This document shows, in pieces, positions 723 to 57,736 of a stretch of 64,000 bases of DNA. The stretch lies in contig JAVJQW010000070.1 in assembly GCA_040218735.1 (NCBI GenBank), positions 320,001 through 384,000 of the forward strand. The letters are read 5' to 3'. Each line of letters starts with the position of its first letter. Position 1 is the stretch's first letter. Source of the stretch: Deltaproteobacteria bacterium (lineage in GTDB: Bacteria; Myxococcota; Kuafuiibacteriia; Kuafuiibacteriales; Kuafuiibacteriaceae). A model generated the notes under the pieces. The model worked only from the letters and a program-made list of their open reading frames with translations, searched no databases and was not told the origin of the DNA. Both the position numbers and the translations under genes were made by a program.

Positions 723-2075
723 TCAGTCCCAGCGCTCGACGACGACGCCGCGCTCCTGACACGCGCTGCACCGCACGACGTCGAGATCGATCCGGGGGGC
801 TTCGCCCAGCGCGGTGATCGCTTCCTTGAGCGCGCGGATCAGCGGGGTCACGCGTGCCGCGGTGCCGTCGGGGCAGCGCGGAGGGCCGGACATGTCCGCG
901 ATCTTGAACGCGAGGCGCAGGCTGATGGGGCGGTTGAGCTCGAGCTCGCCGAGCTGGGCACGGAGCTCCCGACGTTCCTCGGGCGGGTTGAGGCGCAAGA
1001 TCGAGACGATCTTCTGCTCGCTCGGCCACCAGTACGGTTGGTGCGACGCGATCACGCCGAGGTCGCCCTTCGCGGGCCCGAGGCGGAGGCTGCCGTACTC
1101 CGCTTCACACTTGTCACAGCGCACCGCGACCAGGAGCTCGCGCTCGGGCCCGAGCGAGGCCGTGATCGGTGTCTGCGGGTACGGCGAGGTGATGTCGCGG
1201 CTGAGGTTTTCTTCGGTGATCGGCGCGAGGTCGGTCGTGCCCTTGCGCACCTCGCCCAAGCCCGTCGTGTCGAAGTCGATGACGAGGTCGTCCTCGCTGA
1301 CATCACGCCACACGAACTGCGTGCTGTCTTCGAGCGCGCCCTCGTCGACGACGATGTCGATCGAGAGGTCCTCGGAGAGCGCCTCCTCCGTGGGGATCGA
1401 CGCGGGGATCGCTTCGGCGCTGGGCACACGCTCGGGGACGTCCGGACGGACCCCCGTCGTCACGTACTCGCGGAAGCCCGCGAGCGCGCTGTCCGACATG
1501 CGGTCGAGGTGGATCTCCATCCCCTTCGGCGTGTCCATGCAGACGCTCGCGATGTTGCCGGTGAGCACGAACTCCTCCTCGGAGTCGGGGTGGATCATGT
1601 TGAGCGCGACCTTCGTGCCCTGCTCCCGGAGCACCGGCGTCGTGAGGTACAGCGCGCCGGCGCGGACGTTCCGGTCGTAGAACTCGAGGAGGCGGTTCAC
1701 GTTCTTCAGCTTGATGAGGAACGTGGGGGTGTCGGGTGCGGTTCTCGACGGGGCGGGCGCGACCCCCGCGGCGTCGAGCCCGTAGACGAACTCGTCCCAG
1801 CGCGCCTTGGATGCGGACGAGAGCGCAAAGAGCTGCAGCCCGAGCCCCGGGGTCTGTCCGAGCTTTCGGTGGGAGACCACGGCCGTCGCGGGGAGCGGAC
1901 CGCTCGGGATGTCGATCGAGAGCTGGAGGAGCTGCCGTTCTTCGACGGAGGCGTCCGTCTTCACGAAGAGGCCGTGACGGCTGACGTCGAGGGTCTTGGC
2001 GTCGAGCTTGGTGCGCCCGACCGTGAGCTGCACCGGGAGCGACTGCGGGTACCGTTGGCTGCGCCGCTGCTCCAT
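723..2075 (-). CDS. Tandem PilZ-domain protein with acidic linker and C-terminal Cys-rich (Zn-ribbon-like) domain
   Basis: N-terminal QRRSQR (RxxxR) and DVSRHG (DxSxxG) c-di-GMP motifs; second PilZ-like segment NVRAGALYLTT; CDKC and CSAC pairs near the C-terminus. Confidence 0.75.
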   Translation of the reverse strand: MEQRRSQRYPQSLPVQLTVGRTKLDAKTLDVSRHGLFVKTDASVEERQLLQLSIDIPSGPLPATAVVSHRKLGQTPGLGLQLFALSSASKARWDEFVYGLDAAGVAPAPSRTAPDTPTFLIKLKNVNRLLEFYDRNVRAGALYLTTPVLREQGTKVALNMIHPDSEEEFVLTGNIASVCMDTPKGMEIHLDRMSDSALAGFREYVTTGVRPDVPERVPSAEAIPASIPTEEALSEDLSIDIVVDEGALEDSTQFVWRDVSEDDLVIDFDTTGLGEVRKGTTDLAPITEENLSRDITSPYPQTPITASLGPERELLVAVRCDKCEAEYGSLRLGPAKGDLGVIASHQPYWWPSEQKIVSILRLNPPEERRELRAQLGELELNRPISLRLAFKIADMSGPPRCPDGTAARVTPLIRALKEAITALGEAPRIDLDVVRCSACQERGVVVERWD

Positions 2076-2110
2076 CGGGGCGGATTAACACCCCGCCGCC
2101 ACGTTGACCA

Positions 2111-3541
2111 CTACTCCTGCTCGACGGGGGGCGTGACGTAGAACGAGCGCGCGCGGCGGTTTTCGTCGACCCGCAGCGGCATCAGCAGCGGCGGGAACGC
2201 GCGCTGCTCGCAGTCGGTGCGTTCGCACATTCGACACGCGACGCCGATCGGGACGGCGGCGGTGAGGCTCTCGAGATCGACACCGCGCGCGTAGACCAGC
2301 GCCTTCGCGAAGCGCACTTCGCAGCCGATGCCGACGGCGTGGAGGGCGTGGGGCGCGGTGAAGCCGCCGCTGTTGTCGCGGACGGTCCGGGCCACGGAGA
2401 AGTAGGCGGTGCCGTCGGGCATCTGGGAGATTTGCACGCGCACCATGCCCGGCGTGAGGAAGGCCTGGTGCTCGTTCCACCGTGGGCACGCGCCGGAGAA
2501 GCGGGCGAAGCGGAAGCCGGAGGCGGAGAAGCGCTTGGAGATGTTGCCCGCGACGTCGATGCGAACCATGTGCAGCGGGATGGCCTCCTGCCCGGGACGT
2601 CGCAGCGTGGTGAGGCGGTGACAGACCTGCTCAAAGCTGGAGCGAAAGCGGTGCCCGAGGAGCTCGACGTCGTAGGCGAGGTCCTTCGCGGCGTCGAGGA
2701 ACGGCTGGTACGGCATCAACACCGAACCGGCGAAGTAGTTCGCGAGCGCGACGCGGCACAGCGAACGAGATTCGGGCGACGTCAGGCCGTGGTCGCGGGA
2801 GATGCGGTTGAGGACGTCGGAGCTGTCGAGCAACCCGATCTGGTGCGCGAGCTGGAAGTTGCGCGAGCGCGGCGCGAGGATCTCGGAGAGGAGCAGCACG
2901 TGCTCCCGCGGTTGGAAGACGCGGACGTGCCCGCCCATGTTGGCTTCCTTCTCGACGCGAACCTGAATGCCGTGGACGGAGTCGAGGTACTCGACGAGGC
3001 CGCGGTACATGTCGTTGCCGTCGAGGCGGGCGATCCGCCAGAGCATCTCGGCGGCGTCCTCGAGATCCGGGAAGTAGTTGTGGTGGCGTTGGATGAGGTC
3101 GCTGACCTCCTCGCTCGGCATGCCCACCGGCTCGGAGCCTTCGTCGCTCACGCTCGACGCGAGCGCGGAGGCGGAGTCCTTGGCGGTGCGGTAGGCCTGG
3201 TAGAGCGTGGACGTCGCGCGCGCGAGGTTCGGGTAGTTGTTCGCGAACTCGCGGACGTCGCCCTGGACGAGCTCGAGGCTGTCGAACATCGGGTCCGCGA
3301 AGGCCTCCATGAGGTCGCCGACCATCTGCGCCTGGTCGTCGACGGTGAACGACTGCAGGTCGAGGTTGAACATCTGCGCGAGCTTGATCAGCAGGTGCGC
3401 GGAGAGCGGGCGGCGGTTGTGCTCGATGAGGTTGAGGTAGCTCGCGCTGATATCGAGGCGCTGCGCGAGCTGGACCTGCGTGAGGTTTTCGCGGCGGCGG
3501 AGGGCGCGGATCTTCGATCCCAGCTTCGGCGACTCGGCCAT
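2111..3541 (-). CDS. ramB: XRE-family short-chain fatty acyl-CoA regulator (ScfR/RamB type), glyoxylate shunt regulator
   Basis: N-terminal XRE HTH (ISASYLNLIEHNRRP), IrrE-like FQLAHQIG, RIDVAGNISKRFSA and C-terminal CRMCERTDCEQRAFP; divergent from aceB-aceA. Confidence 0.85.
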   Translation of the reverse strand: MAESPKLGSKIRALRRRENLTQVQLAQRLDISASYLNLIEHNRRPLSAHLLIKLAQMFNLDLQSFTVDDQAQMVGDLMEAFADPMFDSLELVQGDVREFANNYPNLARATSTLYQAYRTAKDSASALASSVSDEGSEPVGMPSEEVSDLIQRHHNYFPDLEDAAEMLWRIARLDGNDMYRGLVEYLDSVHGIQVRVEKEANMGGHVRVFQPREHVLLLSEILAPRSRNFQLAHQIGLLDSSDVLNRISRDHGLTSPESRSLCRVALANYFAGSVLMPYQPFLDAAKDLAYDVELLGHRFRSSFEQVCHRLTTLRRPGQEAIPLHMVRIDVAGNISKRFSASGFRFARFSGACPRWNEHQAFLTPGMVRVQISQMPDGTAYFSVARTVRDNSGGFTAPHALHAVGIGCEVRFAKALVYARGVDLESLTAAVPIGVACRMCERTDCEQRAFPPLLMPLRVDENRRARSFYVTPPVEQE

Positions 3542-3671: not shown

Positions 3672-5291
<1,620 letters not shown>

Positions 5292-45591: not shown

Positions 45592-45637
45592 CTCTTCCGA
45601 ACGTAACCACGGAGGGCCCGCGGTCCATCGCGGGGAG

Positions 45638-45711
45638 CACACCCAGAGGGACTCGAACCCCCAACCCCTGGATTCGAAGTCCAGTGCTCTATCCAATTGA
45701 GCTATGGGTGC
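45638..45711 (-). tRNA. tRNA-Arg, anticodon UCG; CCA not encoded
   Basis: GCACCCA/TGGGTGT acceptor stem, TAGCTCAATTGGATAGAGC D-arm, CTGGA-CTTCGAA-TCCAG anticodon arm, GGTTCGAGTCC T-arm. Confidence 0.95.
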
Positions 45712-45758: not shown

Positions 45759-47066
45759 TCAGCGCAGGGCGAGGCGGGTCTGGAAGCGGGCGAAGTCGGC
45801 GTCGAAGGCCTCGATGCCCGCGCGCATCAGGGCGCGCAGCTCGACGCGCTCGGCGTCGGAGAAGCGGAGGCGCTGGGCGAGCCGGAGCAGGAAGGTGACG
45901 AAGTCCTGCTGCTCGAGCTCGACGTCCGCGCCGAAGGCAATCGCGCCGTTCGGCTGCGTGGGGAACGCGCTCCACCAGCGGGCGCCGACGCCGTTGCTCT
46001 GCGTCAGCACGCGGAAGAAGTCGCCGACGAGCGTCTCGAGGTCGGAGGGGATCAGGACGTCGACGAGCGTCGCGTCCACCGCGACGCGCGGCATGCGCTT
46101 CAGCGTGGAGACCAGCCGCACCTCGTCGTCGGTGCGAACCACGTCGGTCGTCACCGAGAGGTCGGCGATGTGCATCGACACGCCGGGGGAGTCGGAGTCG
46201 AGCTCCCACGTGGTCTGGTAGCGGCTCTTCTGCAGGCGCGCGAGGTTCAGCGGGAACGTCGCCACCGACTCACGGCGCGCGCTGTCGACCTTGGCGATCA
46301 GCACGGTCTTTTTGTCCGCTCCTTGGATGCGGAACCGCGAGCTCGCGAGGCCCGCGCCGCGCTCGAGCGTCGCGGCGACACCTGGGTAGTCCTTCGCGAG
46401 CGCCTCCAGCTTCAGCCGCGTGGAGATCCGCGCACGCACCCCCCCGCCGTCCGCGGCGACGAGATCCCTGAACTCGATGTACTTCTCGACGAGCGACGTC
46501 GTCGCCGGGAACGCGGAGCGCAGCTCGGCGCGCAGCTTCTCGTCGCAGGCGTCGAGGCCCTTCTTCGCCGTGCACCCGCGCGTCACCGCGTTGACCCAAT
46601 CGATGAGCCCGGCGCCCACCGCGACCAGCTCGTCCGCGGTGAGGCCGACGTGCATGCGAGCGTCCGATTGGAGGCGATACGGTTTGCCGTCGGTCGGGGA
46701 CAGCTTCAGCGTCAGGCGCCCGTCACCGGCGCGCCCGTCGACGCGTGGCCTCGACGTCTCGACGTCGTAGCGCCCGACCGGGTGAAGGCTGCCGAACACC
46801 TCGAACGTCCGGACCTTCGACTCGGTGTCGGGCAGCTCGGCGTACAGGCCTTCGAGATCGAACGCCCCGAGGTGCGAGCGCACGCCGTCGAGGCGCTTGC
46901 GTGCGTCGGGCGTGACGGCGCGCTGCTGCGTGAACGCGTTCGTGAGGCGCACGAGATCCGCGACGCGCACCACGACTGCCTGGTCGTCACCGAGCGCCGA
47001 CGTGCAGGACCACGCACCGAGCTCGGGGGGCAGCGCGAGTGCAACGAACAGTGCCCACCACCCCAT
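45759..47066 (-). CDS. Hypothetical secreted protein
   Basis: ATG 47066 with signal-like WWALFVALAL; 435-aa ORF. Confidence 0.6.
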   Translation of the reverse strand: MGWWALFVALALPPELGAWSCTSALGDDQAVVVRVADLVRLTNAFTQQRAVTPDARKRLDGVRSHLGAFDLEGLYAELPDTESKVRTFEVFGSLHPVGRYDVETSRPRVDGRAGDGRLTLKLSPTDGKPYRLQSDARMHVGLTADELVAVGAGLIDWVNAVTRGCTAKKGLDACDEKLRAELRSAFPATTSLVEKYIEFRDLVAADGGGVRARISTRLKLEALAKDYPGVAATLERGAGLASSRFRIQGADKKTVLIAKVDSARRESVATFPLNLARLQKSRYQTTWELDSDSPGVSMHIADLSVTTDVVRTDDEVRLVSTLKRMPRVAVDATLVDVLIPSDLETLVGDFFRVLTQSNGVGARWWSAFPTQPNGAIAFGADVELEQQDFVTFLLRLAQRLRFSDAERVELRALMRAGIEAFDADFARFQTRLALR

Positions 47067-47161
47067 GCGCCCTACTCTACCCGATTGTCGCGCAGCCGGG
47101 CGCGACCCGATGTCGCACGGTTGCCGAGCGCGACACGCTGCGTTCACAGTGCGCGGCGATC

Positions 47162-48181
47162 ATGCTCCTCGGTCTCACCCCCGACGCGCTCGCGGCGCGC
47201 CTCGAGTCCGCGACGCGGGCGCGGATGGTGACGCGCGTGCTCGCCGAGGGCCGCGACCCGTGGACGGCCGAGGACGTCCCGGAGGGGGTGCGCCGACGCC
47301 TCGCTGCCACCTGCGCGCGCACGCCGCACCGCATCACGAACCGCACCGAGGCCGACGACGGCACCGAAAAGCTCCTCGTCGACCTGTCGACCGACGCACC
47401 CGGGCGCGAGGTCGAGACCGTCCTCATCCCCACCGCGAGCCGCAACACGGTGTGTGTCTCCAGCCAGGTCGGCTGCAAGCGGCGTTGTCACTTCTGCCTC
47501 ACGGGTACGATGGGGCTCGTGCACGACCTGCGCGCGGACGAGATCGTTCTGCAGGTGTGGCTCGCGCTCCAGCGGCGGCCGGTGCGGAACGTCGTGTTCA
47601 TGGGGATGGGGGAGCCGCTCGACAACTTCGACGCGGTCGCGGACGCCGTCACCGTGCTCACCCACGACCGGGGCTTCGGTCTGGCGCCGCGGCACGTGAC
47701 GGTGTCGACGGTCGGCCCGTCGCCGGAGGCGGTGCGCCGGCTGCGCGACCTCGACACCCGGGTCGCGTGGTCGCTGCACGCCGCGGACGACGACGTCCGG
47801 GCGCGGATCATCGGCACGCACCGGCACCCGGTCGCGGCGCTGCGCGATGCGTTCTTCGAGGTGGTGGGGAAGCAGCCGCTGTTCGTCGAGGTCACGCTCA
47901 TCGCCGAACACAACGACCGTGACGAGGACGCCGACGCGCTCGTCCAGCTCTTCGCCGACGCGCCGACCGAAGTCCGACTCAACCTCCTCCCGATGAACCC
48001 GATCGGCAACGCGCTCCGCCCCAGCGTCCGGGTCGACGCCTTCGCCGCGCGTCTGAAGGCGGCCGGGTTCTTCACGTCGGTCCGCCGCGCGCGCGGCGAC
48101 GATCAGCGCTCGGCCTGCGGGCAGCTGTACGCGACACCCCGGCGACGCGGCGCCCTTCGTTCGGGCGAGCGGTCCGTGTAG
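47162..48181 (+). CDS. rlmN: RlmN/Cfr-family radical SAM RNA methyltransferase
   Basis: CVSSQVGCKRRCHFC, VFMGMGEP, SACGQL; short divergent N-terminus, so possibly a paralogue. Confidence 0.8.
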   Translation: MLLGLTPDALAARLESATRARMVTRVLAEGRDPWTAEDVPEGVRRRLAATCARTPHRITNRTEADDGTEKLLVDLSTDAPGREVETVLIPTASRNTVCVSSQVGCKRRCHFCLTGTMGLVHDLRADEIVLQVWLALQRRPVRNVVFMGMGEPLDNFDAVADAVTVLTHDRGFGLAPRHVTVSTVGPSPEAVRRLRDLDTRVAWSLHAADDDVRARIIGTHRHPVAALRDAFFEVVGKQPLFVEVTLIAEHNDRDEDADALVQLFADAPTEVRLNLLPMNPIGNALRPSVRVDAFAARLKAAGFFTSVRRARGDDQRSACGQLYATPRRRGALRSGERSV

Positions 48182-48191
48182 GCTCCGCGGC

Positions 48192-49280
48192 GTGCGGGTC
48201 GAGCGCGTCGAGTCGATCGTCGAGTTCGAAGCGCTCGCCGAAGCGTGGTCCGACCTCGCCGACCGATCCGACACCGCGCACCTGTTCAACACCCACGCCT
48301 GGCTGAGCGCATGGTGGGAGGCGTTCGGGCGCGGCACCCCGCGGGTGTACGCGGTGTACGACGACCGGCTCGTCGCCGCGCTCCCGCTGCGCCTGGACGA
48401 CCGCGGGCTCACGGCGTGGTTCAACCACTACCTCGGGCGCAGTGACGTCCTCGTGGATCGCGACCGGCCCGACGCCTACCCAGCGCTCTTCGCTGCGCTG
48501 GGCGACGACCGCGCCGACTGGGACCACGTCGAGCTGACGCAGGTTCCGGAGGACTCCCCGACGATCGCCGCCCTCGCCCGCGGCGACGCGGATCCGTTGC
48601 GCATCCACGCGGTGCGCAACATCTGCTCGCCCTACCTGCTCTGCCGGGGCACTTACGACGCCTGGTACAAGTCCCGCTTCTCCGGTCGGAAGCGTCAGCA
48701 GGACCGCCGCAAGCTCCGGCAGGCGGAGAAACGCGGCGCGACGGAGCTCGTCTGGCACACCGACGTCGAGGCCGTGCAGGCCGCCTTCGAGCGCGGCGCG
48801 ATCGCGGAGGACAAGAGTTGGAAGGGCGAGGAGGCGAGCGCGATGCTGAAGAGCCCCGACGCCCTCGCCTTCATGCGCGACGTCATCGTTCGGTTCGCCA
48901 AGCTCGGTGCGGTGCGGCTGGTCGAGCAGACCGTCGGCGGCGAGACGGCGGCGTTCCTGCTCGGCTTCGTGCACGGCGACACCTTCTACTTCCACAAGAC
49001 CGGCTACGACCCCGAGTTCGCCGACGTGAGCCCCGGCCGCACCGTGCTGCTCGCGGCGATCGAGCGGTGCTTCGAGGAGGGGCTCGCGCGCTTCGACTTC
49101 CTCGGCGCGGACGACCCCTACAAGCTCGAGTGCTCCCCCCTCGTTCGCCCGCACGTCATCGCGTTTGTGTACCACCGCGGTCTGCGCTCGCGGATGCTGC
49201 GCGAGCAGAAGCGCCTCGTCCCGAAGGTCCGCGCCCTGCGCGGCGAGCCGATCGCGTTCCCCGTGCGACTGGACAGATGA
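48192..49280 (+). CDS. CelD/BcsL-type GNAT acetyltransferase
   Basis: LFNTHAWLSAWWEAF, KTGYDPEFADVSPG, FDFLGADDPYK. Confidence 0.85.
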   Translation: MRVERVESIVEFEALAEAWSDLADRSDTAHLFNTHAWLSAWWEAFGRGTPRVYAVYDDRLVAALPLRLDDRGLTAWFNHYLGRSDVLVDRDRPDAYPALFAALGDDRADWDHVELTQVPEDSPTIAALARGDADPLRIHAVRNICSPYLLCRGTYDAWYKSRFSGRKRQQDRRKLRQAEKRGATELVWHTDVEAVQAAFERGAIAEDKSWKGEEASAMLKSPDALAFMRDVIVRFAKLGAVRLVEQTVGGETAAFLLGFVHGDTFYFHKTGYDPEFADVSPGRTVLLAAIERCFEEGLARFDFLGADDPYKLECSPLVRPHVIAFVYHRGLRSRMLREQKRLVPKVRALRGEPIAFPVRLDR

Positions 49281-49306
49281 CTCGGGCGGGGCGATCGTAG
49301 GGGCGG

Positions 49307-50353
49307 ATGCCGCGCGGGCTCGAAGTCCACCCGATCGCCGACGAAGCCGATCCGCCTTGGCGCGCCCTCCTCGATCGTCACGTGATGGCGCGTTCGATCG
49401 TGCCGGCGTGGGAGGTTCTGGCGGGCTGGGAGAACGCGCCGTACGGCCTCTACGATCACGGTGAGCTCGTCGGCGGCTTCCTGCTCTCCACGCAGCGCAT
49501 CCCGTTCACGCCGCTGAAGTTCTCACGCATCAACTGCTTGATGGTCGGACCCCAGCGTCCGGTCGAAGGCTTGGACGCGTTGCTCGCGGCGTTGGATCGC
49601 ATCGCGATCAAGCGAGGCCTGATCGAGACGGAGCTGCGGCTTCGCATCCCGACCGTCGACGACATCCCCGGCTTCGAAGCCCACGCCCCGCTCCGCGCGA
49701 CGTTCGAGCGGCACGGCTACAACCCGCTCGGTAAGGTCGACACGACCTACTTCGTCCGCGTCGACCGCGACGACGACACGATGCTCGCGTCCTTCGACCG
49801 CAGCGCGCGAAACAAGATCCGCAAAGCGCAGCGCAGCGAGGTCCAGGTCGAAGTCTCGAGCGACTTCACGCTGCTCGACGACTTCTACGACGCGTACATC
49901 GACATGTGCCACCGCAAGAGCGCGCCGGTGCAGCCCGAGGCGCTCGTCGGTTACGGGCTCAAGCCGCTGATCGAGCGCGGCCACGCGCTGTTCGTCACGG
50001 AACGTTACGGCGAGCACGTCTCGAACATGGTCATCGTCGATACACTCGGCGTGCCCTGCTACGTGCTCGGCGCACGCGCCCCCGCGAACGTTCGCGGCAT
50101 CGTCCCCGGCGCGGCGCAGGTCGTTCAGTTCGAGATCATGCGCACCATGCGCGAGCGCGGCCACGTCTGGTACGACCTCGGCGGCTGTGAAGGCCCCGTG
50201 CCGATCGACCGCCACGAAAACTTCGGCGTGTGGCGCTTCAAGTACGGCTTCGGCGGGCGCTTCATCCGCTTCCTCCCCTACTTCCGCAAGATCCGCGGCC
50301 CGCTCCCGCGCGTCGTGCAGCTCACCCACGAGCTCCGCGGCGACTTCGTCTAG
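49307..50353 (+). CDS. FemAB/FemX-like GNAT (tRNA-dependent aminoacyl transferase fold)
   Basis: ARNKIRKAQR, YDLGG, GVWRFKYGFGG. Confidence 0.8.
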   Translation: MPRGLEVHPIADEADPPWRALLDRHVMARSIVPAWEVLAGWENAPYGLYDHGELVGGFLLSTQRIPFTPLKFSRINCLMVGPQRPVEGLDALLAALDRIAIKRGLIETELRLRIPTVDDIPGFEAHAPLRATFERHGYNPLGKVDTTYFVRVDRDDDTMLASFDRSARNKIRKAQRSEVQVEVSSDFTLLDDFYDAYIDMCHRKSAPVQPEALVGYGLKPLIERGHALFVTERYGEHVSNMVIVDTLGVPCYVLGARAPANVRGIVPGAAQVVQFEIMRTMRERGHVWYDLGGCEGPVPIDRHENFGVWRFKYGFGGRFIRFLPYFRKIRGPLPRVVQLTHELRGDFV

Positions 50354-50359
50354 GTGCGC

Positions 50360-52294
50360 TCACGCGGCCTCGACCACTCGCGTCACCAGGTTCGCCTCGC
50401 CACCCGCCGGTTCGACCTCGAACTCCAGACGCCCCTCGTACGCGAAGCTCTTGGAGAGCTCACGCGCATAAGGCACACCCGAGCGCGCCAATCGCTCGAT
50501 GATCAGGTCCTGCGATGGACTCGACCTCGACCGGTGCAGCATCCCAAGGAGCGCGCGCGCCGCATGGAAGTCCTCCGCTCTCGGCGCCGCACCACGCGCC
50601 ACCGTCGACCAGACACTGCGCCGACGCGAGGAGGCGCGCCCATCGACGATGCGCCACTCGCTGGTGAGCCGTTCGAGTGCTCCCACCGCAGCGTCGCACG
50701 CGCCTATAACGCTCTCTGCGCTCGCCACGAGAGACTGCTCGAGCCCTCGCACCAGGAGCACAGCACGTTCGAGCTCCGAGAGCTTCGCATTCATCGCGAC
50801 GTCCAACAGCTCCGTTGCATCGTTGGTCAAACCACACGAATGAACGAAGACGTCACGAAGCCTGGCCTCATGAAGTCGCCCCGCAAACATCGACGACGCA
50901 CTTCGCGTGCTCTCGACGAACCCGTGCGCGGCCCAAAACGTAAGCCAGGTGGGATCGCAAGGGTGCCACCGCCGCGAGCTCTCCTGCACCACGAGGCCCG
51001 TTAGCTCGGCCACGTACGACAAGACCTCCCTCGCGATGGGGGGCGTAGGCCGAACCGAAGCCTCGTCGAGCCACGCCTCCTCCAGCGCGTCGCAACCCGT
51101 GTCGACGGCACGCAGCGCCATCCAGTGAAGCCAGTAGCGCACACGTGATGCCTTCGCCCAGGGCGCCGCGCGCCGGACATGACGACGTCGCGAATCACGC
51201 TCCGCGAACTCGGCGAGGCACGCATCTAGGACTTCGGTCTGTCGAAACCACGTCGAAGCACCGTCCGATCGCCCAGCCTTCAACGCGCCCTCGATGAGGA
51301 GTGGACGATTGAGGACGTCCGCGAGCTCGTCACGCTCCCAGAGTCGCCCGATGAACTCCGTTCGGACATCATCGGCGCGTCGACACAGAAGCCGCCAAGA
51401 CTCGCTCCGCGTGAGCGACTTCGCCTCGACTCGAACGAAGTCCTCGAGCCGGTCCAGCTCCGCTACCGGCCGCGACGTCACGATGGTCGGCCGACCGACA
51501 CTCCATCGCGAGATCGCCTCCGCCGCCAAGCTACGCTCATCGACCGCGATCTGATCGAACCCATCCGCAAACATCGGAACGGGGTCCTCGGACTCGGACC
51601 AGCTCGTCGACTCACACCACGCCCCCTCCGGCACTTGGCCAAGGTCGACGCGCCGCACCGTCCGACCGAAGTACTCCGCGAGCACGTTCGCGACGCTGCT
51701 CGACTTCCCCGTGCCGGCCTCTCCGAACACGATGACCCGTGGCGAGGAGCTAAGAGCCTCGACGAGATCGTCGCGGAGCGTTCCCACACAGGACGCATCG
51801 AGCCTCGTCTTCCGAGGCACCGGCTCCCGCCAATACGCGCCTGGCTTCGCGTCTTGGGCGATGGACGCCGACGCATCACCGCTCGAGATCTCCGCCGGCA
51901 TCGGCCGGGTCCCGCTGCGAAGCGCTTCCACCTGCTCCGAAATGGGTCGACCGCGTAGCTCTAGCATCGCGGCCTCGTAGGTCGTCTCCTCGAGGTACCG
52001 CGCCACGGAAGGGGCCATCCGTTCGCCGTGCGGCGACACCTGAGACGCTGGCCGCTCCGCCATCGCCCGGAAGGACTCCAAGGGCGCGCTCGGCGCCGAT
52101 GCGCTTCGCTCGACGACGTCGACGATGCGCCGAAGAACATCCGCTCTCGGGATCGTCCGATCGTTCACCCACTGCGAGATCGCCGAGGCGCTCACGCCCA
52201 GGTAGGTTGCCCACTCCGAGCGCTTGAACACGCCCGCTTCATCCAAGAGCCCGACGAGCGCTCGGGCGAACTTGCTCTGCCTTCGCTCGCTCAT
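50360..52294 (-). CDS. XRE helix-turn-helix fused to a NACHT-like STAND NTPase
   Basis: LGVSASAISQWVNDRTIP HTH; Walker A GEAGTGKS; Walker B MFADGFDQ; IVTSRP; NRPLL; WHD-like PTWLTFWAA; atypical codon usage. Confidence 0.75.
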   Translation of the reverse strand: MSERRQSKFARALVGLLDEAGVFKRSEWATYLGVSASAISQWVNDRTIPRADVLRRIVDVVERSASAPSAPLESFRAMAERPASQVSPHGERMAPSVARYLEETTYEAAMLELRGRPISEQVEALRSGTRPMPAEISSGDASASIAQDAKPGAYWREPVPRKTRLDASCVGTLRDDLVEALSSSPRVIVFGEAGTGKSSSVANVLAEYFGRTVRRVDLGQVPEGAWCESTSWSESEDPVPMFADGFDQIAVDERSLAAEAISRWSVGRPTIVTSRPVAELDRLEDFVRVEAKSLTRSESWRLLCRRADDVRTEFIGRLWERDELADVLNRPLLIEGALKAGRSDGASTWFRQTEVLDACLAEFAERDSRRRHVRRAAPWAKASRVRYWLHWMALRAVDTGCDALEEAWLDEASVRPTPPIAREVLSYVAELTGLVVQESSRRWHPCDPTWLTFWAAHGFVESTRSASSMFAGRLHEARLRDVFVHSCGLTNDATELLDVAMNAKLSELERAVLLVRGLEQSLVASAESVIGACDAAVGALERLTSEWRIVDGRASSRRRSVWSTVARGAAPRAEDFHAARALLGMLHRSRSSPSQDLIIERLARSGVPYARELSKSFAYEGRLEFEVEPAGGEANLVTRVVEAA

Positions 52295-53009
52295 GATTCA
52301 CCTCTCTGCGCCCGATCGTCGAACGCGTACGCATCGTCGAAGTGCATGTGAATGCCTTCGTCCCAGTCCATATCCGGCGCACAGACGCCGGTGCTCCGCA
52401 GCCCCTTCGCGCGCGCCTCGCCGAGTTGCTGGAGCGCCTGGAGAGTGACTTCGCGCGCCGCCTCGAGCGTCATCGTCGCCCGCCCTGGCGACGCAAATAC
52501 GATCCCGTCACGGACCTCGATCCAAGGCTCCACAGCCTCGAGTCCCGTCGAGTCCCCCGGAATCACTTCGCGCCCCGCCGTGAACACTCCACCCCCGGCG
52601 CCTTGGCGCATTTCAGGCGGCAATGCCGCGAAGAACTCCGCTTCGTCCGCTGGCGTCACGATGCGGTCGTCGGGAGGCACGTAGTCGACGTACTTCGTCT
52701 TCACGCGTGTCCCCAGGACGGAGCGGCGGTGAGCGCGCCCTCGTATCGGCGCGTGTGAGGTCACGCTCCACCCCTTGACGAGGTCCACGTAGACCTCGAC
52801 GTCGAGTCCGTCGGGCGTGTCGATCACCCACAGCGGTGTCTGCTGCAACCACCCGTCCAGCGTGATGCCGATGGTCTTCGCCAACCACATCGTCGCCGCC
52901 CCGGCCGCGACGACAAGGACCGCCGGCTTCAGCTCGACGCCGCCGCGGTCCCCAGCAGCCCTCCGCCGAGGATGACCACGTCGCACGCGAACGCCTCCGT
53001 CCCGCTCAC
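52291..53009 (-). pseudogene. Disrupted FAD-dependent oxidoreductase (DAO/glycine-oxidase-like)
   Basis: GTG 53009 gives MSGTEAFACDVVILGGGLLGTAAASS* (stop at 52929-52931); a different frame continues VELKPAVLVVAAGAAT...PGRATM to 52291. Confidence 0.65.
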
Positions 53010-53015
53010 CGAAAC

Positions 53016-53044
53016 AAGATAGGGGAGCGAAGGCACGTCGTCAA
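53016..53044 (-). promoter_or_regulatory. Sigma70-type promoter TTGACG-N17-TATCTT, leaderless to GTG 53009
   Basis: -35 at 53044-53039, -10 at 53021-53016, 6 nt to the start codon. Confidence 0.75.
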
Positions 53045-53067
53045 GTCACTTCATGAAGTGACTTCAT
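53041..53067. promoter_or_regulatory. Tandem palindromic operator
   Basis: Perfect 22-bp palindrome AAGTCACTTCATGAAGTGACTT (53043-53064); overlapping boxes TCAAGT-C-ACTTCA and ATGAAGT-G-ACTTCAT. Confidence 0.75.
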
Positions 53068-53080
53068 TAGAATCGAAGGC

Positions 53081-53833
53081 CTATTGGGCAGCGCCTACGC
53101 CCTCGTCCTTCAGGTCGTCGAGCGGCAGCCCCTTCGCCGTGGCGAGGAGGTCCTTCATCGGCACCTTCCGGCCCTGGACCTCGACCATGAAGCGGTCGGC
53201 GAGGATCAGCTTCACCTCGCCGCGCATCGTCTTCGAGTTCCACTTCTCGTAGGACTTGTGGCCGTCGATCTTCGACGTGCGCTCGTAGCCGTCGTCCGAC
53301 TCGCGATCGATCTCCGCCATCGCCCAGCCCGCCGCCGCCATCGCCGCGAAGCCCTTCATCGAGCCCATGTCGATGATCTTCACGGTGAGCCGCTTGCCGT
53401 CCGCCTCGTACTTGCCCTCTGCGTTGGAGATCTTCATCCCCATCGCGCCCGCCTTCTCGCCCTTCGCGTTCGTACGCTTCAGGCCGGCCGCCTCGTCCGG
53501 GAGCATCTTCTTCAGCTCGCGGAAGTTCACCGGCTCCACGTTCGACGTGTTCTTCGCGATGGCCTTCTGCATCTCGGCCATCGCCTCCTGGAGGTTCTTC
53601 GGATCCGCGGCGTCGGTCGCGTCGTCCGCGGCCCCCTCGCCGTCGTCCGCCGCCTCCTTCGCGACCTTCGCCGCCTCCTTGGCGGCCTGCTCGGCGACCT
53701 TCGCCGCCTCCAGCGCCTGTTTCTTCGCGGCCTCGGCGTTCGCCATGGCCTCCTTCACCTTCGCCTGCTCGTCCTTGCAGCCGACGGCCACGATGAAGGA
53801 GACGAACAACCCGACAATCCAGACCTTCTTCAT
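53081..53833 (-). CDS. Hypothetical lipoprotein with Ala/Lys/Glu coiled coil
   Basis: MKKVWIVGLFVSFIVAVGC lipobox; strongly biased codon usage. Confidence 0.8.
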   Translation of the reverse strand: MKKVWIVGLFVSFIVAVGCKDEQAKVKEAMANAEAAKKQALEAAKVAEQAAKEAAKVAKEAADDGEGAADDATDAADPKNLQEAMAEMQKAIAKNTSNVEPVNFRELKKMLPDEAAGLKRTNAKGEKAGAMGMKISNAEGKYEADGKRLTVKIIDMGSMKGFAAMAAAGWAMAEIDRESDDGYERTSKIDGHKSYEKWNSKTMRGEVKLILADRFMVEVQGRKVPMKDLLATAKGLPLDDLKDEGVGAAQ

Positions 53834-53934
53834 GGGCTGGGACCGTAACCGGATCCCCGGGGTGGGATCCACGCGTGGCACGACCGCGCCAGAAAAACCG
53901 ACGAATCGACGAAGCACCGTGCACTGCCCAGATC

Positions 53935-55206
53935 ATGCGTACAATCTCGGTGCTCCTCGTCTCGTCGCTGTTCGCGTGCGGCACGGAGCGGATGGCGTCG
54001 ACGCCCGGCGACCGCGACGTCGGCGCCTCGGCCCCGGACGCCGGCTCAGGACGGACCGATGCAGGCCCCCGGGACGGAGGAGAGGTGACCGACGGGGGCG
54101 ACCCACACCGCGACGGGGGCGACGTCCCGCGCGACGGAGGCGATCCAGGCGGCTGTGTCCCGCTCCCCGCGACCCCGATTACGGAGGTCGCGGACGCCGC
54201 GTTCGGCATCCGTGGGCTCGTCGAGGTCGACGGGGGCTTCCTCGTCGCTTGGATCCGCAACCGGTCGATGGAGCCCTTCAACGCGATCGTGACCCACGTC
54301 GACGCGCAGCTGAACCGGGTCTCCTACGGCGAGGACCTGGGCCCCCTCCCCGACCGCGACGGACAACTCCTCCCCGCCGAGGACGGTGCCTGGTTCCAGG
54401 GCGTGCGCCCCTCGCTCGGCATGCAGAGGATCGAGCTCACCAAGCTCGGGCCGTCGGGCTCCATCGAGGGGCGGCACACGATCACCTCCACCACGATCGT
54501 GGGCTCCGACTTCGTCCGCACCGACGATGGGTACGCGGTCTCCTACAACGTCGGTCGGCGCGGGCACCCCTACGACCGCGCCGTGCTCCAGCGCCTCGAC
54601 ACCGACGGACGCCCGGTCGGCGACCCCGTCACCCTCATCGAAGGCCGGGGGGTCGATCAGCTCGTGTGGACGGGGTCCCAGCTCGGTGCGGTGGTGTTGT
54701 CCGGGGGGACGGAGTTCGGGCTCGTTCGGCTCGACGCGAACGGCACCACGCCCGAACCCGTGATGCCCCTCGTCTTCGACGAAGCGGTGGCAGGCCCGTT
54801 CTCCCTCGCCGCACACCCCGACGGCTTCCTGTTCGGCACGCGGCTGCAGGGCGACGAACGAAGCCTCTTTCGCTTCTTCGACGCCGCCGGGGCCCCGGTG
54901 GGGCGCGCTCAGCTGTTCGGGCTCTGGCCGGTCGAGGCGGTATACGACGGCGAGGTCTTCGGCCTGGCCGCCGAGGACTTCTTTTCTCGAGGGACGGCGA
55001 TGCAGTTCGCCGTCGCCGCGCCCGGACAGATCCGCGACGTTCGCGAGAGCGCGCTCTCCATCAACCCGACCAACCCGGCCGCGGCCAACGCACAGATCGT
55101 CGCCGTGGACGGCGGCTTCGTCCTGGCGTGGCTCGAGTGGACGTTCAACGTGAACCCGCTCACCGAGCCGGACTACCGCGTGGTCATGGCACGCGTGTGC
55201 CTCTGA
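53935..55206 (+). CDS. Hypothetical lipoprotein (DAG/DGG-rich linker plus beta-propeller-like domain)
   Basis: MRTISVLLVSSLFAC lipobox; RDGG repeats; beta-rich blades such as LVWTGSQLGAV. Confidence 0.75.
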   Translation: MRTISVLLVSSLFACGTERMASTPGDRDVGASAPDAGSGRTDAGPRDGGEVTDGGDPHRDGGDVPRDGGDPGGCVPLPATPITEVADAAFGIRGLVEVDGGFLVAWIRNRSMEPFNAIVTHVDAQLNRVSYGEDLGPLPDRDGQLLPAEDGAWFQGVRPSLGMQRIELTKLGPSGSIEGRHTITSTTIVGSDFVRTDDGYAVSYNVGRRGHPYDRAVLQRLDTDGRPVGDPVTLIEGRGVDQLVWTGSQLGAVVLSGGTEFGLVRLDANGTTPEPVMPLVFDEAVAGPFSLAAHPDGFLFGTRLQGDERSLFRFFDAAGAPVGRAQLFGLWPVEAVYDGEVFGLAAEDFFSRGTAMQFAVAAPGQIRDVRESALSINPTNPAAANAQIVAVDGGFVLAWLEWTFNVNPLTEPDYRVVMARVCL

Positions 55207-55213
55207 CGCCCGT

Positions 55214-57736
55214 CTACTTGGCGATGAGGTTCAGGATCTTGCCGGGTTTGTAGATCACGCGGACGAGGTTCTTGCCCTCCAGCTGCCGCGCCACCGACTC
55301 GTTCGCCTTTGCGGCGGCTACGGCCGTCGCCTCGTCGGCGTCGACCGGGATCTCGATCTCCCCGCGCGTCTTCCCCATCACCTGGACGCCCATCTTCATG
55401 GTGTCCTCGACGAGGTACTTTTCGTCCGCCTCGGGCCACGCGGCGTAGCTGATCCCGCCCTCGTGACCGAGCCCCTTCGCCCACAGCTCCTCCGCGATGT
55501 GCGGCGCGAGCGGCTGGATGAGCTGCGCGAGCGGGCCGAGGATCGCCTTCGACGTCGTCTTCAGCTGGGTGAGATCGCGCGTCGCGATGTGCAGCGCGGA
55601 GACCGCCGTGTTGAGCGCGAGCTTTTCGTAGTCTTCGCTCACCTTCGCGATCGCCTTGTGGAGGATCTTCAGCTCCTCCGCCGTCGGCTCCGCGTCCGTC
55701 GCGCGCGGCGTGTCGTCGTCGCCCTCGAAGTACAGACGCCACACCCGCTCCAGCCACTTGAACTGCGCCTGGATGCCGCCCGGCGCCCACGGCTTGTCCT
55801 GGTCGAGCGGCCCGAGGAACGCGATGTAGACGCGCATCGCGTCGGCGCCATAGTCGCGGATGACGTCGTCCGGGTTCACGACGTTCCCCTTCCGCTTCGA
55901 CATCTTCTCGATGCGCTGCGTGAGCACCTCACCGGTGCCCTTCTCGACGTACGTGCCGTCCTTCTCCTCGACGTCGTTCCACGCGACGATCCGCTTGTCG
56001 TCGCGGTAGTACGTGAACGCCTGCACCATCCCCTGGTGGAACAGCTTCGTCGCGAACTCCGCGTCGCGCACGAGCCCCTCGTCGTGCAGGAACCGCTGCC
56101 ACATCCGCGAGTACATCAGGTGCCCCACGGCATGCTCCGGGCCGCCGACGTACAGGTCGACGGGCATCCAGTAGTCCGACTTCTCCCGCGCGCAGAACGC
56201 CTCGTCGTTGTGCGGGTCGCAGTAGCGCAGGAAGTACCAGCTCGACCCCGCCGAGCCCGGCATCGTCTGCGTCTCGCGCAGGAGCTTCTCGCCGGTCTTC
56301 GGATCGTCGACCTCCACCCACGCGCGCGCGAGCGACAGCGGCGACTCACCGGTGCCCGTCGGCGCGTACTGCTCGACCGCCGGGAGCTCGAGCGGAAGCT
56401 CGTCCACGTCCAACGCGCGCACCACCTCGCCCGCCGCGTTCTTCAGCACCGGGATCGGCTCGCCCCAGTAGCGCTGCCGCGCGAACGTCCAGTCGCGGAG
56501 CTTGTAGTTGATCGTGCCCTCGCCGAAGCCCTGCTCCGCGAGCCACGCCGTGACCTTCTTCTTCGCCTCGCCGTCCGCGGTCGGCGTGCCGTCGAAGTCG
56601 CCGCTGTTGATCATCTCGCCTTCGCCGACGTGCGCGCCTTCGGACACGTCGCCGCCCGAGATCACCGGCACGATCGACAGCTCCATCGCCTTCGCAAACG
56701 CCCAGTCGCGCTCGTCGTGTCCGGGCACGGCCATAATCGCGCCGGTGCCGTAGCCGTAGATCACGTAGTCGGAGATCCAGATCGGGATCTGCGCCCCCGT
56801 CGCCGGGTTCGTCGCACGCGCACCGGTGTCCGCGCCGGTCTTCTCCTTCGTGGTCTGCCGGTCGATCTCACTCATCGCCGCCGTGCGCGCCTGGTACGCC
56901 TCGACGGCCTCCCGCTGCGCGTCCGTGGTGATCTCGGCGACGATCGGGTGCTCGGGCGCCACGACCATGTACGTCGCGCCGAACACGGTGTCGGGGCGCG
57001 TCGTGAACACGCGGAGCTTCTCGTCGGAGCCTTCGATCAAGAAGTCGATGTGCGCGCCCTCCGAGCGCCCGATGCGCTCACGCTGCGCAAGTTTGGTTGC
57101 GTCGGCCCAGTCGATCGTCTCGAGCCCCTCGAGCAGCTTCTCGGCGTAGTCGGTGATGCGAATCATCCACTGCCGCATCCGCTTGCGCTCGACCGGGTGG
57201 CCGCCGCGCTCCGACTTGCCGTCGATGACCTCGTCGTTCGCGAGCACCGTCCCGAGCGCCGGGCACCAGTTCACGAAGGTGTCGGCCTCGTACGCCAGCC
57301 CCTTCTCGAGCAGCTTCGTGAAGATCCACTGCGTCCACTTGTAGAAGTCCGGCGACGCCGTCGAGACCTCGCGCGTCCAGTCGTACGAGAAGCCGCACAT
57401 CTTGAGCTGGCGGCGGAACGTCTCGATCGACTCCGCCGTCGACTGCTGCGGGGGGACGCCCTCGTCGATCGCCTTCTGTTCGGCGGGGAGCCCGAAGGCG
57501 TCGTAGCCCATCGGGTGGAGGACGTTGAAGCCCTGCGCGCGGCGCTTGCGGGAGACGACGTCCGCGCCGATGTAACTCGCCGGGTGGCCGACGTGCAGCC
57601 CCTTGCCCGACGGGTACGGGAACATGTCGAGCGCATAGAACTTGGGGAGGGAGAAGTCGTCCTTGGCGACGAAGGTCCCTTCGTCATCCCAGAACTTCTG
57701 CCAACGGGGCTCGATCTCGGTCGGGCGGTACGGCAT
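55214..57736 (-). CDS. leuS: Leucine--tRNA ligase
   Basis: MFPYPSGKGLHVGH, FTTRPDT, GAIMAVPGHDERD, RQRYWGEP, KMSKR. Confidence 0.97.
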   Translation of the reverse strand: MPYRPTEIEPRWQKFWDDEGTFVAKDDFSLPKFYALDMFPYPSGKGLHVGHPASYIGADVVSRKRRAQGFNVLHPMGYDAFGLPAEQKAIDEGVPPQQSTAESIETFRRQLKMCGFSYDWTREVSTASPDFYKWTQWIFTKLLEKGLAYEADTFVNWCPALGTVLANDEVIDGKSERGGHPVERKRMRQWMIRITDYAEKLLEGLETIDWADATKLAQRERIGRSEGAHIDFLIEGSDEKLRVFTTRPDTVFGATYMVVAPEHPIVAEITTDAQREAVEAYQARTAAMSEIDRQTTKEKTGADTGARATNPATGAQIPIWISDYVIYGYGTGAIMAVPGHDERDWAFAKAMELSIVPVISGGDVSEGAHVGEGEMINSGDFDGTPTADGEAKKKVTAWLAEQGFGEGTINYKLRDWTFARQRYWGEPIPVLKNAAGEVVRALDVDELPLELPAVEQYAPTGTGESPLSLARAWVEVDDPKTGEKLLRETQTMPGSAGSSWYFLRYCDPHNDEAFCAREKSDYWMPVDLYVGGPEHAVGHLMYSRMWQRFLHDEGLVRDAEFATKLFHQGMVQAFTYYRDDKRIVAWNDVEEKDGTYVEKGTGEVLTQRIEKMSKRKGNVVNPDDVIRDYGADAMRVYIAFLGPLDQDKPWAPGGIQAQFKWLERVWRLYFEGDDDTPRATDAEPTAEELKILHKAIAKVSEDYEKLALNTAVSALHIATRDLTQLKTTSKAILGPLAQLIQPLAPHIAEELWAKGLGHEGGISYAAWPEADEKYLVEDTMKMGVQVMGKTRGEIEIPVDADEATAVAAAKANESVARQLEGKNLVRVIYKPGKILNLIAK

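Follow-up and report, generated by a model that had tools for sequence, protein, structure and literature searches.

A putative flavoenzyme/HTH-NACHT operon behind a double operator: a probably acquired and partly decayed copy in a genome of the Myxococcota

We analyzed a stretch of 64,000 nucleotides from contig JAVJQW010000070.1 of a deltaproteobacterial genome (phylum Myxococcota, assembly GCA_040218735.1), which is called the window in the following and whose positions are used as coordinates throughout. Between 50360 and 53066 it contains a cassette of two genes, both on the minus strand. An initial annotation made from the sequence alone had described this cassette as a candidate self-regulated two-gene module, in which the gene of a flavoenzyme precedes the gene of a STAND protein with an XRE-type helix–turn–helix (HTH) head and a NACHT NTPase, with a double operator in front of both. 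The features of the cassette are collected in Table 1. As had been seen before, the stop codon of the first open reading frame (ORF) and the start codon of the STAND gene are coupled by an ATGA (52294–52291 on the minus strand). We consider it reasonably probable that the window carries a horizontally acquired, partly decayed copy of a rare and conserved two-gene operon.

Table 1. Features of the cassette, given in window positions
Feature	Position	Strand	Description
STAND gene	50360-52294	minus	644 aa, intact XRE-HTH and NACHT-type STAND NTPase, second gene
Walker B / NACHT signature DGFDQ	51551-51565	minus	residues 244-248
Walker A GEAGTGKS	51701-51724	minus	residues 191-198
HTH_3 match	52115-52210	minus	residues 29-60 of the 644-aa protein, inside a conserved N-terminal DNA-binding domain of ~128 aa
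Remnant ORF	52291-52986	minus	231 codons, GTG start, GGAGG 7 nt upstream, first gene
Deletion junction	52930-52950	minus	from GC3 frame switch and alignments; position approximate
Ancestral 5' end of the flavoenzyme gene	52929-53009	minus	GTG start, GxGxxG Rossmann motif, TGA stop
Promoter-like site	53016-53044	minus	-35 TTGACG 53044-53039, 17-nt spacer, -10 TATCTT 53021-53016; consensus match
Double operator	53041-53066	minus	two adjacent 13-bp palindromes; joint perfect 22-bp palindrome 53043-53064

The first gene does not encode the intact flavoenzyme which the initial annotation had assumed, because only the C-terminal half is left in frame and the FAD-binding motif lies in another frame. 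The 231-aa ORF aligned with the alignment of the flavoenzyme family at an hhalign probability of 100% (E 7e-44), its residues 15–226 corresponding to columns 198–406 of 414, and it is 35–41% identical to the intact homologues. Columns 1–197 of the family profile are missing from the ORF, and with them 15 of the 36 invariant positions including the RNQGWLQSG motif. No DAO (PF01266) or FAD family of Pfam was found in the 231-aa ORF even at E<=10. Upstream of the ORF a GTG at 53009 opens 25 codons which contain the Rossmann motif (DVVILGGGLLGTAAA) and run into a TGA at 52931–52929, in a frame different from that of the 231-codon ORF. Over the 26 codons bearing the GxGxxG (53009–52932) the GC content at third codon positions (GC3) is 0.96 in the frame of this stub versus 0.61 in the frame of the ORF, and it then switches to the ORF frame (0.82); judging from the codon-position GC we therefore take the stub frame to be the coding frame in this part. 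The stub aligns to residues 2–26 of the intact flavoenzyme of a Devosiaceae metagenome-assembled genome (MAG; locus L020), and its Pfam matches, to AlaDh_PNT_C (E 0.045) and to positions 1–16 of the FAD_oxidored profile (E 0.42), are too weak to be significant. Altogether about 170 codons (~0.5 kb) of an original ~405 aa are lost from the window copy, from the middle of the gene and with them the larger part of the core that binds FAD and substrate, and the frame is shifted. From these alignments it appears very likely that the first gene is the remnant of a DAO-family flavoenzyme gene after an out-of-frame internal deletion, within a cassette that was acquired. The flavoenzyme gene of the window is almost certainly dead and its 231-aa product most likely a non-functional fragment.

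The deletion is not an assembly error, since the junction is crossed without an indel by a metagenome contig of 29,452 nt which covers 50200–53300 and comes from another study (X2). In this contig 18 positions are substituted with respect to the window, and 9 nt are inserted at 53111. The sequence from X1, a run that may be where this DNA comes from, is identical, and the contigs of X3 and X5 stop short of bridging the junction. The 9-nt insertion at 53111, carried by the related strain of X2 and X5, is in frame and lies near the 3′ end of the neighboring lipoprotein gene.

Several searches were run for relatives of the remnant. A word-indexed protein search with the remnant ORF and the STAND protein brought back no proteins other than those of the window itself. 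Nothing usable came from the ESM Atlas for the 231-aa ORF, and the Atlas's model of it is unfolded with a predicted local distance difference test (pLDDT) score of 0.36. When the ORF and an X-bridged read-through were compared by phmmer with the six-frame ORFs of the same genome, no paralogue was found (best non-self E 0.014). A weak match to the ORF in the relative G015 (E 6.1e-4) was dismissed as chance, the frame being full of stops and the overlapping ORF reaching an hhalign probability of 0.1%.

The second gene corresponds to its initial description as an XRE-HTH/NACHT protein. Pfam HTH_3 (PF01381) matches residues 29–60 with 24.0 bits, a marginal pass of the cutoff of 23, and a Walker A motif and structural matches of the NLR (nucleotide-binding, leucine-rich repeat) type go along with it. 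The Pfam STAND and AAA matches of the window protein are below threshold (nSTAND1, 20.7 versus a cutoff of 27.1) and Pfam NACHT (PF05729) does not match it; among the homologues NACHT scores 27.8 in L020, above the cutoff of 26.7, 24.6 in L019 and 18.3 in L018. An exhaustive HMMER search gave 419 representatives at E<=1e-3 and 34 full-length family representatives at E<=1e-30. The best homologues are full length, having 646–744 aa and 27–35% identity, and about 115 of the 150 listed matches are short or different proteins whose common part is the first ~105–150 residues (40–57% identity). In the sources the STAND proteins are named just "helix-turn-helix domain-containing" or "hypothetical".

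An alignment of 32 sequences has four conserved parts, an N-terminal HTH domain of ~110 aa, a variable linker, the Walker A motif with a DGLDE-type Walker B motif, and a C-terminal region. The Walker A pattern GxxGxGK[ST] is present with G194, G196 and K197 being invariant, and the family consensus DGLDE fits the NACHT signature D[GAS]hDE; the window protein reads DGFDQ at this place (E to Q248), and the homologue P0033 also has a Q. In the HTH domain the residues S40, Q41, W42, T47, P49 and R50 of the recognition helix are invariant or nearly so, which fits a shared DNA target. The window protein deviates at 5 of 59 highly conserved columns (family median 3.5, maximum 8), and judged by these columns it is a divergent copy, not an outlier. 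An AlphaFold2 (AF2) model of the protein has a pLDDT of 84.3. In this model residues 10–100 are helical with pLDDT >90, the linker 130–169 is disordered and the C-terminus (~545–644) forms a small alpha/beta domain and not a repeat array. The central part is predicted to adopt the nucleotide-binding, helical and winged-helix fold of NLR NACHT modules. Accordingly composed is the Foldseek list, with NLRC4, NLRP3, NOD2, NAIP and NLRP-family chains at ranks 1–41 (best E 5e-8), followed by MalT (8bob) and Apaf-1 at ranks 42 and 45, respectively; the TM scores are low (0.2–0.36) because the entire multidomain model was used in the comparison. In a profile search of PDB sequences most of the matches were to P-loops in general, the longest alignment among the rows inspected being that with NLRC4, and no significant PDB relative of the HTH domain was found by sequence.

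Homologous operons were collected in two scans. The scan with one genome per species gave three full-length loci, namely in Steroidobacter gossypii (L018), in an alphaproteobacterial MAG (L019) and in the Devosiaceae MAG (L020), as well as a locus in Hellea balneolensis (L021) in which only the HTH domain matches, and a metagenome scan added six more loci. Intact operons are found in Alpha- and Gammaproteobacteria and in metagenomes. Conservation of the gene order, which the initial annotation had suggested to check, is complete: at 10 of the 10 assessable loci including the window the gene immediately before the HTH gene, on the same strand, belongs to the flavoenzyme family (L027 is outside this count). 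The upstream genes of L018, L019, L020 and L021 score 56.4, 63.7, 56.6 and 55.7 bits with the DAO profile (cutoff 27.9), and those of L022, L025 and L026 match the C-terminal motifs of the flavoenzyme family. The upstream gene of L024 is a divergent family member (hhalign E 2.7e-30), and that of L023 has, by eye, the same N-terminal sequence as L024's. The flavoenzyme stop codon and the HTH start codon are −4 to +2 nt apart in all seven loci checked, to which the ATGA of the window is added; tight coupling is seen in 8 of 10 loci, and L023 and L024 have a gap of 233–438 nt. The last flavoenzyme codons (..NDAEV/..DDAER, stop; L018:4945-4965, L019, L021 and L022) hold a GGAGG or GGAG 5–9 nt before the ATG of the HTH gene, and the conserved C-terminus of the flavoenzyme therefore doubles as the Shine–Dalgarno sequence of the HTH gene. 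In addition, the longest contigs of three flavoenzyme clusters have the same lengths (5456, 11417 and 13957 nt) as those of three STAND clusters, and this suggests that three further contigs carry both genes.

What is attached to the flavoenzyme–HTH core varies between the loci. In the window and in L018–L020 and L022 the HTH domain is fused to the NACHT module. At the Hellea balneolensis locus (L021:3764-8722) the flavoenzyme gene, with an operator core at 3739, precedes the gene of a 292-aa HTH protein, and the ATPase, here KaiC-like, has 953 aa and a gene of its own behind it (PF06745, E 5e-11). In L024:2653-7206 and L027:195-3565 a protein of 592–642 aa combines the common HTH head with an unmatched body, and the next gene encodes a radical SAM enzyme (PF04055, E 4e-18 to 8e-19); in L024 the gap behind the divergent flavoenzyme gene is 233 nt and an ankyrin-repeat protein is encoded upstream.

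The region in front of the cassette contains an inverted repeat. Its arms 53043–53053 and 53054–53064 have 11 nt each, are 100% complementary and are not separated by a gap. On the coding strand the two operator boxes read TGAAGT-C-ACTTCA and then TGAAGT-G-ACTTGA. The pattern TGAAGTNACTTCA with at most one mismatch occurs twice in the 64-kb window, exactly at 53041–53053 and 53054–53066 (expected 0.03), and at least two such matches were found in 0 of 100 shuffled sequences. The core AAGTNACTT has 13 sites in the 11.6-Mb genome; nowhere but at the operator do two of them lie within 30 nt of each other, and no perfect 13-mer exists elsewhere. Between 50000 and 53500 there is a single promoter-like site of the sigma-70 kind, on the minus strand with 9 of 12 consensus matches (shuffles 0.2 +/- 0.4), whose −35 element TTGACG overlaps the last operator half-site. 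The initial annotation had given the module its own promoter and a double operator, and the palindrome, unique in window and genome, together with the one promoter-like site is in line with this. In the 99.4%-identical X2 contig the operator is free of substitutions.

The conservation of the operator boxes, also put forward as a check by the initial annotation, was then judged by the homologous loci. In L018, L019 and L020, each of ~12 kb, there is one single occurrence of AAGTNACTT (expected 0.06–0.13 per locus), and likewise one in the ~10 kb of L021; shuffle controls covered L018–L020. In all four genome loci (L018, L019, L020, L021) it has the same position, 20–55 nt upstream of the flavoenzyme start, and L025 has an operator form with one mismatch (TTAAGTCGCTTAA). 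Such a recurrence at a set position is hard to obtain by chance, the four loci being distant in phylogeny and the genes upstream of them unrelated. The half-sites form arrays of 3–4 alternating T(T/G)AAGT / ACTT(A/C)A hexamers in steps of 6–7 nt, which sit at −57 to −17 from the start codon in the window, L019, L020, L021 and L025; L018 has one palindrome and two loose half-sites, and the radical-SAM-linked loci L023 and L024 have TTAAG half-sites which are scattered only. Read by eye, a TAATTA at the half-site junction could be the −10 element in L019, L020, L021 and L025; the scoring script gave no clear support for this weak lead.

An inverted-repeat operator which lies over the operon's own promoter and is kept among the homologues is the mark of an XRE-autoregulated operon, and binding to it is predicted here. 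It appears quite likely from these sequence comparisons that the HTH-NACHT protein autoregulates its operon through the operator. Two points speak against too firm a reading: the operator pattern was cut from the 13-mer to the core after the homologues had been seen, making the per-locus statistics partly post hoc, and the promoters are consensus guesses which are ambiguous in the homologues, scoring 7–9 of 12.

The cassette is foreign to its surroundings in several respects. In 40 relatives the STAND gene was looked for and not found. With the family profile NACHT-region matches were obtained in 74 of 401 genomes of the phylum, and only G000 matches over the full length (positions 5–675), the next best match covering 193–513. 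In G001, a genome of the same genus, the two genes which flank the cassette, FemAB-like (86% identity) and lipoprotein (79%), are ~0.4 kb apart versus 2.7 kb in the window genome, and the filler is unrelated; in this filler (L009:929-1320) there is a possible ORF of ~65 codons. In G004 the same interval (L017:1430-9690) extends over 8.3 kb and includes genes for MatE, DUF4781 and an OYE-type flavin reductase. The differing contents in G001 and G004 show that the interval is variable. The GC3 is 0.781 for the STAND gene and 0.797 for the upstream ORF, compared with 0.885–0.955 in seven flanking genes and a genome median of ~0.88 (from a crude ORF set), in agreement with the deviating codon usage seen initially. 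There are no flanking direct repeats, no Rfam match was obtained in 49500–54000, and an integrase or an adjacent tRNA gene was not found. In 400 further genomes each of the class and the order of L020 (2 candidates scored per genome) there was no full-length member besides L020's genome. A tblastn search with two STAND proteins against plasmids and a scan of viral contigs gave nothing. Since the homologues are co-located, the operator is conserved and the relatives, with an empty site in the same genus, are without the genes, the initial view of an acquired and unnamed two-gene module stands, and its self-regulation stands as a prediction.

Also the flanking genes are, as described before, unrelated to the cassette. 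The left flank is a FemAB/GNAT-like gene (PF02388, 43.8 bits). The right flank is a 278-aa ORF (53917–53081) with a lipobox-like N-terminus, its assignment as a lipoprotein being by eye only, and the palindrome lies 15 nt past the stop codon of this ORF. The only tRNA gene of the window is a tRNA-Arg (TCG) at 45637–45711, 4.6 kb from the cassette; an integrase was not seen beside it among the ORFs of 47000–57000, the sole part examined.

Since the window copy is incomplete, the enzyme was characterized with the intact homologues. The flavoenzyme family comprises 82 clusters at E<=1e-10 with about 333–463 aa, mostly ~400–430, whose members carry only generic names in the sources. The family has 36 invariant residues overall, and the invariant RNQGWLQSG motif is peculiar to it. 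The AF2 model of the L020 enzyme has a pLDDT of 91.9, and by Foldseek it resembles iminodiacetate oxidase (6pxs), sarcosine oxidase, N-methyltryptophan oxidase (2uzz), glycine oxidase (ThiO) and NikD (E 1.4e-18 to 1e-15, TM 0.6–0.74, identity 12–19%). All NCBIfam equivalogs are far under their cutoffs (at most 26 bits versus 250–600). By homology, gene 1 of the intact operon is a DAO-superfamily, amine/amino-acid-oxidase-like flavoenzyme of about 405 aa. A complex prediction of the NACHT and C-terminal part of the L020 protein (165–650) with the flavoenzyme (score 0.00, mark 0.32) is evidence neither way.

On this basis the intact operon might work as follows. The HTH domain would bind the alternating T(G/T)AAGT / ACTT(C/A)A half-sites over the promoter and thereby autoregulate the operon, most likely as a repressor. 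Nucleotide- or ligand-driven switching or oligomerization of the NACHT module would alter the binding to the operator, and the co-translated oxidase of the intact systems would be the functional partner. Such a system would probably be a mobile conflict or defence module. The window module could at most repress itself, with its enzymatic arm gone.

A defence role is plausible since integrases and known defence genes adjoin the operon in two of the four genome loci. In L019 an 810-aa RdrB-like adenosine-deaminase protein (834–3266; PADLOC RdrB, E 1.3e-21) is encoded immediately upstream, and a P4-type integrase gene and then a HerA-like gene follow downstream; in L021 the upstream side holds SoFic (E 5.7e-119) and an integrase, and the downstream side a type II cytosine methyltransferase. 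We put forward a defence function of the intact family tentatively, by analogy with such surroundings. The more specific proposal that the intact family is an NLR-like immune or conflict system, in which the NACHT sensor doubles as an operator-binding transcription factor and the obligate oxidase serves as effector or ligand generator, is rather doubtful. As parts of this same doubtful proposal the oxidase might act by oxidative killing or by metabolite depletion, and the flavoenzyme–HTH core might be a portable unit plugging into KaiC-like ATPases and radical SAM enzymes as in L021, L024 and L027.

A number of observations do not fit this picture. The window cassette is located among housekeeping-type genes, and the neighbors in L018 and L020 are ordinary or unmatched (GH115, PfkB, glycosyltransferase, solute-binding protein). 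In the PADLOC screen, which the initial annotation had recommended, neither protein family was matched; with PADLOC-DB v2 the window proteins and 10 homologous or partner proteins gave a best E of 2.6e-4, with P-loop stretches only. Regarding the decay of the copy, the remnant ORF has a good Shine–Dalgarno sequence and its decay is modest, 3 of 30 highly conserved positions being changed (family maximum 5). The fragment may therefore still have a residual role. Compared with X2 the remnant shows 3 synonymous and 2 non-synonymous substitutions and the STAND gene 5 non-synonymous and 3 synonymous changes, counts which are in either gene too few to call selection; in view also of the E to Q exchange in its NACHT signature the STAND gene may itself be drifting.

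The same data can be read without any link to phages. The pair could be a metabolic regulon, in which a MalT-like STAND factor, sensing the substrate or product with its C-terminal domain, would control the induction of an amine oxidase for catabolism or detoxification. MalT does appear in the Foldseek list of the STAND protein, in its fold the partner resembles iminodiacetate, sarcosine, N-methyltryptophan and glycine oxidases, PADLOC is silent, and the neighbors in L018 and L020 have an ordinary, metabolic character. However, no transporter or catabolic gene is conserved with the pair, the neighbors differ from locus to locus, the distribution is extremely sporadic, and two loci adjoin integrases and defence genes. 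The variants with KaiC-like ATPases and radical SAM enzymes show a modularity more typical of conflict systems. Modular partners and sporadic distribution speak, on thin evidence, more for a conflict or defence module than for a catabolic regulon, which we regard as unlikely. An addiction module in the reverse toxin–antitoxin order can also be considered, with a toxic oxidase (producing H2O2 or depleting a metabolite) and the HTH-NACHT protein as its repressor or neutralizer. The enzyme gene comes first and the XRE-HTH gene second, they are translationally coupled, and a palindromic operator covers the promoter, a layout resembling the HigBA- and MqsRA-type operons. About 115 of the 150 listed matches to the STAND protein are, moreover, short and share the N-terminal HTH part only. 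Here the enzyme gene is destroyed and the HTH gene intact, and if the module were of this kind its oxidase core would have been lost in the way in which toxin genes usually are once transferred. Yet a 644-aa NTPase is far bigger than an antitoxin requires, a single deletion event proves no selection, and DAO-family enzymes are not known to be toxins of toxin–antitoxin systems; we consider this explanation quite improbable.

Two further possibilities concern the window copy itself. The initial annotation had regarded the flavoenzyme as the output of a sense-and-respond cassette, and for a cassette still working in this genome with an active flavoenzyme one can point to the open ORF with its Shine–Dalgarno sequence and coding-type GC3 (0.80) and to the intact operator and STAND gene. 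But with ~170 codons lost, the frame shifted, columns 1–197 with 15 of the 36 invariant residues and the in-frame GxGxxG missing, no DAO or FAD family in the ORF and an unfolded Atlas model, this is extremely improbable and the flavoenzyme can hardly be the output in this copy. Just as little credence can be given to the idea that the palindrome is a terminator or hairpin of the upstream lipoprotein gene instead of an operator. It does fold as a 9-bp hairpin (−12.4 kcal/mol, z −2.27) just 3′ of the lipoprotein ORF; however, there is no U-run 3′ of the palindrome, the terminator scan gave no call there, and the core motif is also found before homologous operons which have quite different upstream genes. 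We therefore return to the acquired and partly decayed copy of a two-gene operon.

That the system has no name, as noted initially, was borne out in PADLOC, in NCBIfam and in the literature searched. The NCBIfam antiphage NACHT families EruA and HyoA do not match (EruA 21.2 bits versus a cutoff of 1000), and a literature search for "EruA/HyoA" returned unrelated papers only. Searching the literature for NACHT, NLR or STAND proteins paired with an FAD-dependent oxidoreductase or a D-amino acid oxidase in antiphage or conflict systems gave nothing relevant. The main text of Kaur et al. 2020 (PMC7159879) has no occurrence of FAD, flavin, oxidoreductase or amine oxidase, and its supplementary tables may list such an architecture.

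The window copy is a relic; its annotation as an oxidoreductase is unwarranted and the interest lies in the family rather than in the locus. In bacteria, NACHT proteins of the NLR-like type are known as phage sensors encoded by single genes, whose heads are nucleases, proteases or NAD-degrading enzymes, and STAND transcription factors are known as metabolic regulators. The family joins both ideas by combining an NLR-type NACHT module with an XRE head, an operator conserved across phyla and a strictly linked oxidase. If the intact operon were defensive, a flavin oxidase would join the effector or signal repertoire of bacterial NLRs, and the family would offer a tractable case of an NLR with a transcriptional readout.

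Four groups of known systems invite comparison. The DAO-superfamily oxidases share the two-domain fold with the intact homologue, in which Pfam DAO is above threshold; the differences are the identity of only 12–19%, the family's own RNQGWLQSG motif and, for the window copy, the restriction to the C-terminal half. STAND transcription factors which sense small molecules are a known class (MalT). Like these, the protein has a STAND NTPase fused to a DNA-binding domain, and ligand- or ATP-controlled oligomerization is expected to govern promoter binding. Unlike MalT, whose DNA-binding domain is C-terminal and of the LuxR type, it has an N-terminal XRE HTH, its NTPase is nearer to the NLR-type NACHT, a repeat-type sensor is missing and the apparent target is its own operon. 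C proteins of restriction–modification systems and HigA/MqsA-type antitoxins are XRE-family repressors of defence and addiction operons.

A comparable case is CdxB, which represses the CARD-NLR-like lypABC operon (PMC13236601). With C proteins, HigA/MqsA and CdxB the present system would share an XRE-type HTH on palindromic promoter sites of a mobile and potentially harmful operon; in contrast to them the XRE domain is fused to an NLR-like NTPase and is not a separate small protein, and the partner is a flavoenzyme. The NACHT signature D[GAS]hDE was defined by Kibby et al. (bioRxiv 10.1101/2022.07.19.500537), whose main text describes bacterial NACHT (bNACHT) architectures including HTH heads and a C-terminal alpha/beta domain and states that bNACHT genes are rarely in operons and that those operons are poorly conserved. 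The words "oxidoreductase" and "FAD" are absent from this main text, and the supplementary tables may list the clade. Measured against the bNACHT proteins as presented there, the family has in common the central NACHT NTPase with its DGLDE consensus, the tripartite architecture and the sporadic, mobile distribution, and it differs in the tight and consistent coupling of the NACHT gene to the gene of a DAO-family flavoenzyme and, for the window copy, in the signature DGFDQ.

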